This document shows positions 20,204-45,175 of a stretch of DNA of 64,000 nt, piece after piece. Numbering within the stretch: the stretch's first letter is position 1; each line of letters starts with the position of its first letter. Origin of the DNA: a virus (lineage: Duplodnaviria > Caudoviricetes). Under the pieces are notes generated by a model. The model did no database searches. It was not told the origin of the DNA and saw only the letters and a list, made by a program, of their open reading frames with translations. Made by a program: the position numbers and the translations under genes. The stretch spans positions 160,001-224,000 of the IMG/VR virus record IMGVR_UViG_3300037692_000137, one strand, 5' to 3'.

Positions 20204-20683
20204 TTATAAAATCTTTACTTCTGTTGCCTGAATACCCTTCTCTGTGTTCTTTAAAATAAAACTTACTGGTTGGCCTGCTTTAAGTGTTTTATAGCCATCC
20301 ATATCAATACTTGTAAAGTGGATAAAATACTCTGCATCGGGGTTACCATCAATTAGTACAAAACCATATCCCATATATATTCGAGTAAGATCGTTAAACT
20401 TACCCCGTCTATAATTTCTAGACAGCTGCATGTTTCCATACAGATTAGACTATATCACCAACCAATCTGGTTGCTACGCGCTTCCACTCACTTGAGTGTA
20501 CTTCCTTTCGGAATAGTCGTTGCAGGTTCCTCATTAATAGAGGCTTCCCTCAGGATTGTCCTCGACTTGACGTTAGGATATTCCCTGAATTCACGTAGTT
20601 TTTCAAATCACATTACTGTAAAAAGCCGCCTATGGACGGTCGTTAGAAAACCATTTTACAACACCATTAATTCTTTCTTCCAT
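20204..20683 (-). CDS. csp: Cold-shock protein, intron-split: join(20683..20636, 20371..20204), 71 aa
   Basis: Spliced product MEERINGVVKWFSNDR|GYGFVLIDGNPDAEYFIHFTSI... restores RNP1 (KWF..RGYGF) and RNP2 (YFIHF); AAGGAG RBS before 20683. The ORF-track 75-aa N-terminus is intron sequence. Confidence 0.95.
20372..20635 (-). ncRNA. Group I self-splicing intron (IA2-like, 264 nt, no ORF)
   Basis: P1 CCGUC/GGCGG with U-G at the 5' splice site; P3 CUACGUG/CGCGUAG; P4 UCAGGG/UCCUGA; P7 GACUA/UAGUC; P7.1 UUCC-GAAA-GGAA; P7.2 CACUC/GAGUG; P8 CAACC/GGUUG; P9 CUGUAUG-GAAA-CAUGCAG; terminal G. Confidence 0.95.
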
Positions 20684-40272: not shown

Positions 40273-40545
40273 ATGTCTACATCTATTATTTTAGCGCGGC
40301 CTTCAAACCTCTCAAATACTTTCTCTTCCTCCGATGGTAAAATCACTGCTATCGCTGGCCGTTGTGGTGAATTTGACAATGCCCACGTTCTGGAGGTTAT
40401 CACCCCTAAGGGCACCTACCACCTTTCGGGGGACAGGCTTGGTCAGAATCTTACCCGTTACACTGGCTATGCCCCAGAACACTTCCTTATAGCAAAGTAC
40501 GATAAAGGTTCTATTATCCTTAGCTGGACACCTTATCGTAAGTAA
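40273..40545 (+). CDS. 90-aa hypothetical protein, possible paralog of 40942..41214
   Basis: AAGGAG RBS; TPKGTYHL motif. Confidence 0.65.
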   Translation: MSTSIILARPSNLSNTFSSSDGKITAIAGRCGEFDNAHVLEVITPKGTYHLSGDRLGQNLTRYTGYAPEHFLIAKYDKGSIILSWTPYRK

Positions 40546-40570
40546 TTATAAGGTATACGCCTTGTACTAA

Positions 40571-40636
40571 TGTCGAAACCCCGCTATGAGGGGGCCTGTT
40601 AGGACTGGACCCCCTAATACTGATGATGATAGACCA
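40571..40636 (+). ncRNA. Type II hammerhead ribozyme, copy 1 (C at position 16.1)
   Basis: UGUC GAAA CCCC..GGGG CC UGUUAGG..CCUAAUA CUGAUGA U GAUA GACCA. Confidence 0.75.
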
Positions 40637-40669
40637 ACTACTAACCTTTTATCCTGTAAGGAGGATGCC

Positions 40670-40906
40670 ATGAACATTCAACACATCTGTAAGTCCCAAA
40701 CTAATTGTAAAGCACAGCCTGCTGCCAATTGTGCTGGTTGTTTCTACTACGACACCGTAAAAGAAACTGCTATATGTGTATGCTGTAACCTGGCGGCTGA
40801 CCAAGGCAGTGAGTACTGTGGCTTCTGTAATCCAGTCTACCAAGAGCGTTTCAGGAAAGCAGTTATCCGTGAATCCGCTGGCCTTCATAGTGAGTATGAT
40901 ATTTAG
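40670..40906 (+). CDS. Cys-rich small protein
   Basis: Start re-called at MNIQHIC after AAGGAGG; many CxxC. Confidence 0.65.
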   Translation: MNIQHICKSQTNCKAQPAANCAGCFYYDTVKETAICVCCNLAADQGSEYCGFCNPVYQERFRKAVIRESAGLHSEYDI

Positions 40907-40941
40907 TCATCTCAACAACCTTTTATCCTAGGAGGATAACC

Positions 40942-41214
40942 ATGAGCAAACACGTCGCAAAACAACAGCACTCTTTCCCTTTAACAGCAGTAAAGACTGT
41001 AGGTAAACAGTCAGTTCTATTTGAGACCACTCCTGCTGGGTTCTCAGTAGCTTGGTGCGACAGTACTCCTGATAGAGTTACCCTCACAACCCCTAAGGGT
41101 AAGTACACTCTTATCAAGCACAGAACATTGGGCTACTACCACGGTGTTTGTGGTGGGTTTAAGGTTCAGGTATCACTTAAAGTCCAGGTGGGTGAGCTTC
41201 GAGCCTGGTATTAA
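40942..41214 (+). CDS. 90-aa hypothetical protein
   Basis: GGAGG RBS; TPKGKYTL motif. Confidence 0.65.
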   Translation: MSKHVAKQQHSFPLTAVKTVGKQSVLFETTPAGFSVAWCDSTPDRVTLTTPKGKYTLIKHRTLGYYHGVCGGFKVQVSLKVQVGELRAWY

Positions 41215-41218
41215 CCAC

Positions 41219-41282
41219 TGTCGAAACCCCTCTATGAGGGGTCTATTAGGGCCGGCCTCCTAATATTGATAATGACAGGCCA
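41219..41282 (+). ncRNA. Type II hammerhead ribozyme, copy 2 (U3-A8 variant)
   Basis: UGUC GAAA CCCC..GGGG UC UAUUAGG..CCUAAUA UUGAUAA U GACA GGCCA; loop-I GGCC pseudoknot. Confidence 0.85.
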
Positions 41283-41318
41283 ACTAACACAACCTTTTAT
41301 CCTGATGGAGGGATACCC

Positions 41319-41420
41319 ATGAAAGAATTACTTACAGCAGATGAGTCTTTTGAGAATGTAGCACATATACTTGAAGTATTAGCCCTGGCAGATGAGGCTG
41401 ATTTTGAGTTTATTAATTAA
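41319..41420 (+). CDS. 33-aa acidic peptide
   Basis: GGAGG RBS; MKELLTADESFENVAHILEVLALADEADFEFIN. Confidence 0.55.
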   Translation: MKELLTADESFENVAHILEVLALADEADFEFIN

Positions 41421-43588: not shown

Positions 43589-43769
43589 AAGGAGACACAC
43601 GCCATGTCATTACGTTCAATTGTATGTACGTGTCGCCGCACCCAGACAAGCCACACTTTCTTGTCGATTGGGCGACTATAAATAGGCATTAGGCCCAAAG
43701 CGCCCCTATCTATACCAGGTAGGGGGTTGCTCTCTGTGTTAGTTTATTAACTTTATATAAGGAGATTGT

Positions 43770-45084: not shown

Positions 45085-45175
45085 GGGTTTAACGTGAAGG
45101 GCAAACCCGGAGCAATCCGGGGACGCAAAGCTATGGGCCCTCATTGTGAGGGCAGCCAGGTTACCAAACAAACCG
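45085..45175 (+). promoter_or_regulatory. c-di-GMP-I (GEMM) riboswitch
   Basis: GAAGGGCAAACC-CGGAGCAATCCG-GGGACGCAAAGC..GGGCCCTC..GAGGGCAGCCAGGTTACC follows the GEMM layout; G at the position-20 equivalent. Confidence 0.92.

Follow-up and report, generated by a model that had tools for sequence, protein, structure and literature searches.

Two type II hammerhead ribozymes in a small-gene block of a large uncultured phage: a gene-linked cassette and a probable role in cutting the message

The window analysed in this study is a 64,000-nucleotide stretch of DNA, bases 160001-224000 of the 234,228-bp record of an uncultured virus. Terminase, portal and tail genes are present in this 234-kb phage genome, and the sequencing runs that contain the window are sediment metagenomes. 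The locus described here opens a long block of small ORFs on the plus strand and, like the clustered arrays known from other phage genomes, carries two hammerhead ribozymes, both on the plus strand and 648 nt apart, which flank two ORFs (Table 1). With the exception of a MORN-repeat protein encoded further on, the ORFs of the block that were tested had no match in Pfam or PHROG, and this includes P0004, the first gene between the two ribozymes. It is this layout of small plus-strand ORFs without Pfam or PHROG matches that leads us to call the block "early", a name that should be read as presumptive. The ORF upstream of the first ribozyme, P0001, had no homologue in the search made for it, and its comparison with the P0002 family gave an hhalign probability of 3.7%.

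Hammerheads are not the only structured RNAs of the block. A pistol ribozyme lies between the second hammerhead and a c-di-GMP-I riboswitch, and an ORF of 25 codons that starts at 43604 extends into it. In a related contig (L116, 3883-7078) a hammerhead and the riboswitch are both present, and no pistol match was found between them. The ribozymes of this operon are variable accessories. A group I intron lies elsewhere in the window. Outside the window, the RNA-family scan of the genome extended this inventory by no more than another group I intron and five tRNA genes, the latter around G000:34.5-40.7 kb.

Table 1. Coordinates of the hammerhead locus, its structural elements and related features (window positions unless another record is named).
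Feature	Position	Strand	Remarks
Group I intron	20426-20645		
ORF P0001	40273..40545	+	90 aa; orphan; upstream of copy 1
Hammerhead copy 1 (type II)	40571..40638	+	RF02276 30.7 bits; own model R1 97.8 bits
Copy 1, stem II	40571-74 with 40628-31	+	UGUC with GAUA; GAAA at 40575-78
Copy 1, stem III	40579-82 with 40591-94	+	CCCC with GGGG
Copy 1, cleavage site	40595, 40596	+	C16.1 at 40595 (A15.1 = A40578 opposite); C17 at 40596
Copy 1, predicted cut	between 40596 and 40597	+	
Copy 1, stem I	40597-603 with 40613-19	+	UGUUAGG with CCUAAUA
Copy 1, pseudoknot	40606-08 with 40634-36	+	UGG with CCA
Copy 1, core	40620-26	+	CUGAUGA; GAA intact; extra U at 40627
Leader 1	40639..40669	+	AACCTTTTATCCT (40643-40655) plus small predicted hairpin holding the Shine-Dalgarno site, up to the ATG of the next gene
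ORF P0004	40670..40906	+	78 aa; cysteine-rich; first gene between the two predicted cuts
Leader 2	40907..40941	+	Same leader (13-mer at 40917-40929); no hammerhead attached
ORF P0002	40942..41214	+	90 aa; ends ...GELRAWY
Hammerhead copy 2 (type II)	41218..41284	+	RF02276 32.2 bits
Copy 2, stem II	41218-22 with 41274-78	+	(C)UGUC with GACA(G); GAAA at 41223-26
Copy 2, stem III	41227-30 with 41238-41	+	
Copy 2, cleavage site	41242, 41243	+	A15.1-U16.1 = A41226-U41242, then C17 at 41243; GUC site
Copy 2, predicted cut	between 41243 and 41244	+	
Copy 2, stem I	41244-51 with 41258-65	+	
Copy 2, pseudoknot	41254-57 with 41278-81	+	GGCC with GGCC
Copy 2, core	41266-72	+	UUGAUAA (U3-A8); GAA intact; extra U at 41273
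Leader 3	41285..41318	+	Same leader family (13-mer at 41291-41303); one base differs from the leader after variant C in L120; to ATG
ORF P0003	41319..41420	+	33 aa; downstream of copy 2
Pistol ribozyme	43662..43731	+	Rfam RF02679, 65.3 bits (cut-off 34.5); same-strand gene block
c-di-GMP-I riboswitch	45091-45169		Same block
Second group I intron	G000:C1:71842-72064 (L090:12142-12364)	-	83.5 bits
RNA_ligase-family protein (PF09414)	G000:C1:8219-8854 (L098:1402-2037)		211 aa; outside the window; 93.9 bits
Variant B hammerhead	L107:3044-3111; L114:814-881; L115:942-1009 (-); L117:253-320 (-)		

Both hammerheads are placed between ORFs of the same strand, copy 2 beginning 4 nt past a stop codon. 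[quoted passage not shown] They differ from that family in the length of stem II, which is 3-5 bp here against 2 bp in the consensus, in an extra nucleotide after A9 and, in copy 1, in the C at position 16.1. A preliminary description of this DNA had proposed the two type II ribozymes and their spacing, with a core pair that is C3-G8 in copy 1 and U3-A8 in copy 2, an extra U after A9 in both and C16.1 in copy 1. All these elements are found where they had been placed. The same holds for the predicted cuts, after 40596 and 41243, which would bound a fragment of 647 nt with two ORFs (40670-40906 and 40942-41214).

A check against the Hammerhead_II model of Rfam, suggested in the same description, was favourable in part. 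Both copies are covered by the model over its whole length (model positions 1-66), but with only 32.2 bits for copy 2 (E = 2e-4) and 30.7 bits for copy 1 (E = 5e-4) in a 951-nt search, both below the gathering score of 37 bits. When a strict hammerhead descriptor was applied to both strands of the 234-kb genome, copy 2 was the sole match; with the 15.1-16.1 pair left unconstrained, copies 1 and 2 were the only matches in the whole genome. Dinucleotide-shuffled genomes yielded 0.27-0.37 descriptor matches per genome.

Relatives of the locus were not easily reached. The phage collection contained no near-identical DNA; pattern scans of viral contigs, first assuming a conserved stem II and then in a looser form, gave no matches, and protein-led scans starting from the MORN gene and from P0002 found no relatives among viral contigs. 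No Hammerhead_II match at E <= 0.01 was obtained in 38 terminase-related contigs (53-96% identity), which are mostly fragments that possibly do not cover the region, and the 39 contigs made up of these and one from the leader pattern gave no real match to our own covariance model. The leader-pattern scan identified four loci, all without a hammerhead, and the single more distant P0002 homologue from the protein search has no hammerhead after the gene. It was through homologues of P0004, found at 92%, 83% and 68% identity in many groundwater and sediment contigs, that 16 related loci could be examined. According to our own model, nine of these contain one hammerhead and seven none. A pattern scan of metagenomes again showed hammerheads after a P0002-like stop codon, in four loci of which two are records already obtained from the protein look-ups, and contributed a more diverged hammerhead in L120, designated variant C. 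Two other metagenome matches, L118 and L119, have the stem III hairpin only and no hammerhead core, and were taken as chance; the L119 match (positions 651-680 of an unrelated 14-kb contig) reads UGCCGAAACCCCGCUAUGAGGGGU, the stem III hairpin of copy 1, probably by coincidence.

In every case the hammerhead lies 3' of the stop codon of a P0002-like gene, immediately downstream in variants A and B, at a distance of 4 nt in L120. The proteins encoded by these genes are 86-88 aa long and end in GELRAWY. By position, copy 2 is orthologous to the hammerheads that follow the P0002-like genes of L099, L107 and L120. The orthologues all exceed the Rfam cut-off of 37, with 50.3 bits for variant A, 44.6 for variant B and 39.5 for variant C. 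In variant B, recovered from at least three metagenomes, the core reads CUGAUAA, which places C3 opposite A8. This C3.A8 state is a one-step form between the C3-G8 of variants A and C and copy 1 and the U3-A8 of copy 2. The ribozyme is dispensable, since it is absent in many close relatives and after the distant P0002 homologue.

Five distinct sequences could be aligned. Counting the pairs of the stems together with the pseudoknot and C3-G8, 93.6% of the cells are paired, compared with 31-55% in controls in which the partners were slid, and none of 500 shuffles matched the observed covariation. Seven pairs are changed on both sides: three in stem I, two in stem II, one in the pseudoknot (U:A to C:G), and the core pair (C3-G8 to U3-A8). 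Stem III is invariant in the five sequences and offers no evidence either way. All five sequences have the extra nucleotide after A9, U in four of them and G in variant A. At the level of sequence comparison, this covariation establishes the family and its pseudoknot. As both window copies score below 37 bits and their orthologues above, their membership rests on homology and covariation. On these grounds, namely orthologues of 39.5-50.3 bits and seven pairs changed on both sides, we judge copies 1 and 2 to be genuine members of the type II family and reject a chance resemblance to a hammerhead.

The comparison of the two copies with each other is less telling. Over the ribozyme the two share about 90% identity, and the similarity continues through a common leader to the next start codon. 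Their differences amount to 2 single-base indels and 10 substitutions, of which 9 are transitions. In the stems only one side of a pair changes, from G-U to A-U in stem I and from U-G to C-G in stem II, and in the pseudoknot the change from A.A to C:G makes a pair out of a mismatch. Within the genome, C3-G8 versus U3-A8 is the sole compensatory change between two standard pairs. To gauge chance, 10 random substitutions were placed on copy 2 and the trials counted in which at most one of them disrupted the structure. Such trials made up 1% under a uniform model (P = 0.01) and 4-7% under a transition-biased model (P = 0.04-0.07). The within-genome pattern is thus only modestly unlikely by chance, suggestive but not strong. 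The earlier view that the stems of the two copies covary must be amended in this sense: between the copies the changes are one-sided exchanges of wobble and Watson-Crick pairs, and real covariation emerges once the orthologues are added. The companion claim, that loop I and the 3' tail change in concert, is upheld by the pseudoknot pair that covaries across the five sequences.

The two copies also differ in their predicted state. The minimum-energy fold of copy 2 is the hammerhead junction (z = -2.6), which accounts for 40% of the predicted ensemble. The minimum-energy fold of copy 1 is not a hammerhead, for its GGGGG run pairs with the CCCCC run of loop I; the hammerhead fold, at -13.2 kcal/mol, is 3.8 worse than the minimum of -17.0 and takes up about 2e-4 of the ensemble. 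Three features are unique to copy 1 among the five sequences: C16.1, an extra G beside stem III, and an A inserted in loop I, which breaks the covarying pseudoknot pair. Its pseudoknot consists of three pairs and one isolated pair beyond a mismatch, whereas the number of contiguous pairs is four in copy 2, five in variants A and B and four in variant C. C16.1 is no assembly error, because a contig from a second, independent sediment sample is identical over 40450-40619. The runs listed as containing this sequence are all DNA; three of them, from sediment, have identical pieces that show neither natural variants nor ends. The A15.1-U16.1 pair is the most conserved of the hammerhead apart from G10.1-C11.1, and changes to it cost at least 10-fold in rate (PMC3088659); cleavage at non-NUH sites is strongly reduced. 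For these reasons copy 1 is expected to be slow or inactive. The suspicion that it might be slow or conditional agrees with the predicted folding and with the three changes, and we consider it probably slow or dead. Its changes in stem II compensate relative to variants A and B, which means that copy 1 was once selected for the fold.

Each ribozyme is followed by one of three related translation leaders. An exact 13-mer, AACCTTTTATCCT, occurs three times and opens all of them, including the middle one, which has no ribozyme attached. In each leader UAUCC(U) pairs with (A)GGAUA around the Shine-Dalgarno site. Neither the P0002-like gene nor the ribozyme is present in seven related loci. Alignment of L105:2730-2790 with L107:2730-3150 defines an indel block of about 370 nt in which the P0002-like gene is joined by the hammerhead and its leader; a 24-nt direct repeat, CTTTTATCCTGTAAGGAGGATATC, flanks the block. 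Gene order varies as well: a P0003-like gene of 32 aa is found upstream of the P0004 homologue in L099-L113 except L107, and the P0003 homologue is downstream of the hammerhead in the window and in L120. The nearest sequences to copy 1 are variants A and B (82%), and the leader of copy 2 matches that of variant C; the two copies are therefore reassorted module lineages and not the products of a simple local duplication.

We regard the following as the probable explanation of these observations. The comparison shows that both copies belong to one type II hammerhead lineage of large groundwater and sediment phages, recognisable by an additional nucleotide after A9, a stem II of 3-5 bp and the pseudoknot between loop I and the 3' tail. 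Among the close relatives that were sampled, the ribozyme forms the 3' end of a cassette in which a P0002-like gene is combined with the hammerhead and a translation leader, and which is gained and lost between the 24-nt leader repeats. When the same-strand gene block is transcribed, copy 2 would most likely cut itself after C41243. The upstream message would then end with the stem III hairpin and a 2',3'-cyclic phosphate, and the downstream message would open with the stem I hairpin, its first nucleotide bearing a 5'-OH, and continue into its own leader and Shine-Dalgarno site. Because the cut falls between two hairpins, each message would have a hairpin at its new end. Both kinds of end should slow end-dependent decay, and the two messages could decay and be translated independently of each other. 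Copy 1, a member of the same family that formerly kept compensating stem changes, now carries damaging changes and would cleave at a low rate, if at all. For arrays of this kind, the usual suggestion is that they process a polycistronic message (PMC3088659, PMC6765202), and such processing is plausible here. In the predicted best fold of the uncleaved RNA from window 41214-41321, the 5' strand of copy 2 stem III, CCCUCUAU, pairs with downstream AUGGAGGG and hides the Shine-Dalgarno site. An anti-Shine-Dalgarno role of the uncleaved RNA was considered and rejected, as the effect is seen for copy 2 only (P unpaired 0.0 versus 0.25) and not for the other four variants.

A less favourable view would be that neither copy cleaves usefully, and that both are decaying relics kept as structured spacers and as recombination homology between leaders. 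Copy 2 speaks against this. It has no disruptive change: its G8 to A substitution is offset by C3 to U, its pseudoknot shows the U:A to C:G exchange, and a stem II pair has changed to C-G. Such compensation is the signature of continued selection, and hammerheads with U3-A8 are active in vitro (reference 32 of Perreault et al., via PMC3088659). The idea that both copies are relics draws on the fact that they fall under the Rfam cut-off when their orthologues do not, on the dispensability of the cassette in close relatives, on the C3.A8 mismatch of variant B and on the three unique, damaging changes of copy 1. On balance we find it unlikely.

The mobility of the cassette raises another prospect, in which the hammerhead and leader together serve as a portable junction for swapping small genes, cleavage being secondary and acting to insulate the newcomer. 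The indel of gene, hammerhead and leader between direct repeats is what one would expect of such a junction, as are the shift of the P0003-like gene from before P0004 in relatives to after the hammerhead here and in L120, and the reassortment of modules seen in the affinities of copy 1 and of the leader of copy 2. Still, leader repeats alone suffice for recombination, the middle leader doing without a ribozyme, and the covariation indicates selection on the catalytic fold itself. This role is compatible with cutting of the message by copy 2; as the primary explanation we think it quite improbable.

Finally, the preliminary description had raised circularisation of the released fragment. Both ribozymes would cut, and the 647-nt RNA from 40597 to 41243 would be joined into a stable circular message, either by reversal of the hammerhead reaction or by a ligase acting on 2',3'-cyclic phosphate and 5'-OH ends. 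The geometry lends itself to this: the two ORFs, each with a Shine-Dalgarno leader of its own, lie between ribozymes of the same strand, and joining 41243 to 40597 would rebuild a canonical hammerhead with the A15.1-U16.1 pair and GUC site of copy 2, the C3-G8 pair of copy 1 and a stem II that, read from the sequence, has 5 bp (CUGUC with GAUAG). The phage also encodes an RNA_ligase-family protein, PF09414. However, this family is known for sealing 3'-OH and 5'-phosphate ends, which are not those left by a hammerhead, and neither RtcB nor an Rnl1-type ligase was found in the phage genome. Excision would require a cut by copy 1, with its C16.1 and predicted misfolding. Nor is the ribozyme-bounded unit conserved, as related phages have exactly one hammerhead or none at the locus; that the gene, its leader and a single hammerhead are gained and lost jointly argues against circularisation as a conserved role. 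Comparable arrays gave no circular or spliced products when these were sought by Perreault et al. (PMC3088659). A circular, translatable two-gene message in infected cells is thus very improbable, and the proposal is not supported.

Cutting of a polycistronic transcript at a gene boundary, the reading preferred here for copy 2, is both the conventional one and the best supported. Natural type II hammerheads were described by Perreault et al. in 2011 (PMC3088659), who found the pseudoknot between loop I and the 3' tail to be important for speed and reported natural covariation to U3-A8 as well as reduced activity of variants at 15.1 and 16.1. In prophages, multiple hammerheads flank single genes or short gene blocks, a role in mRNA processing was proposed, and comparable triple arrays cleave both in vitro and in E. 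coli (PMC3088659). More generally, self-cleaving ribozymes of bacteria cluster near one another and near phage genes, where their role is unproven (2019 review, PMC6765202). A close parallel is the triple array at ardA of A. tumefaciens (Perreault et al. 2011, Figure 3), in which same-strand ribozymes likewise lie between small phage genes and processing of the transcript is the proposed role. Unlike such prophage arrays, the locus studied here belongs to an uncultured 234-kb phage, its ribozyme is part of an indel cassette together with one specific gene family and a leader that is repeated, and its two copies come from different module lineages.

Other parallels concern details. Copy 2, with U3-A8 in an otherwise intact core, resembles the natural and engineered variants in which C3-G8 is replaced by U3-A8 (PMC3088659); what sets the present case apart is that the C3.A8 intermediate occurs too, so that all three states are found at one locus. 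In the (+) hammerhead of CChMVd, an extra residue lies between A9 and G10.1, U being the best tolerated there, with trans-cleavage 3-4 fold faster (De la Pena and Flores 2001, summarised in PMC3705267). One nucleotide is inserted at the same core position in the phage ribozymes; in contrast to the viroid, where it is naturally A, this extra nucleotide has been kept throughout a type II lineage of phages. A further parallel is with retrozymes and viroid-like circular RNAs (PMC5680766, PMC6765202), in that two same-strand hammerheads bound a unit of about 650 nt whose joined ends would rebuild a hammerhead, but here the unit consists of ordinary protein-coding genes of a dsDNA phage operon and its layout is not conserved in relatives.

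The discovery is a modest one, because the ribozyme class, the pseudoknot, the U3-A8 variant and the tandem layout in phages were all published in 2011. What is specific to this locus is likewise modest: a sub-lineage in which stem II is longer and an additional nucleotide is conserved, the series of three states at C3 and G8, and the tight linkage of the ribozyme to one gene family in an indel cassette. The locus provides a compact natural test set, in which an intact orthologue series with C3-G8, C3.A8 and U3-A8 is accompanied by a sister copy with C16.1 and by close relatives free of the cassette. How these variants compare in the ends, stability and translation of their messages could reveal whether cleavage matters to the phage.
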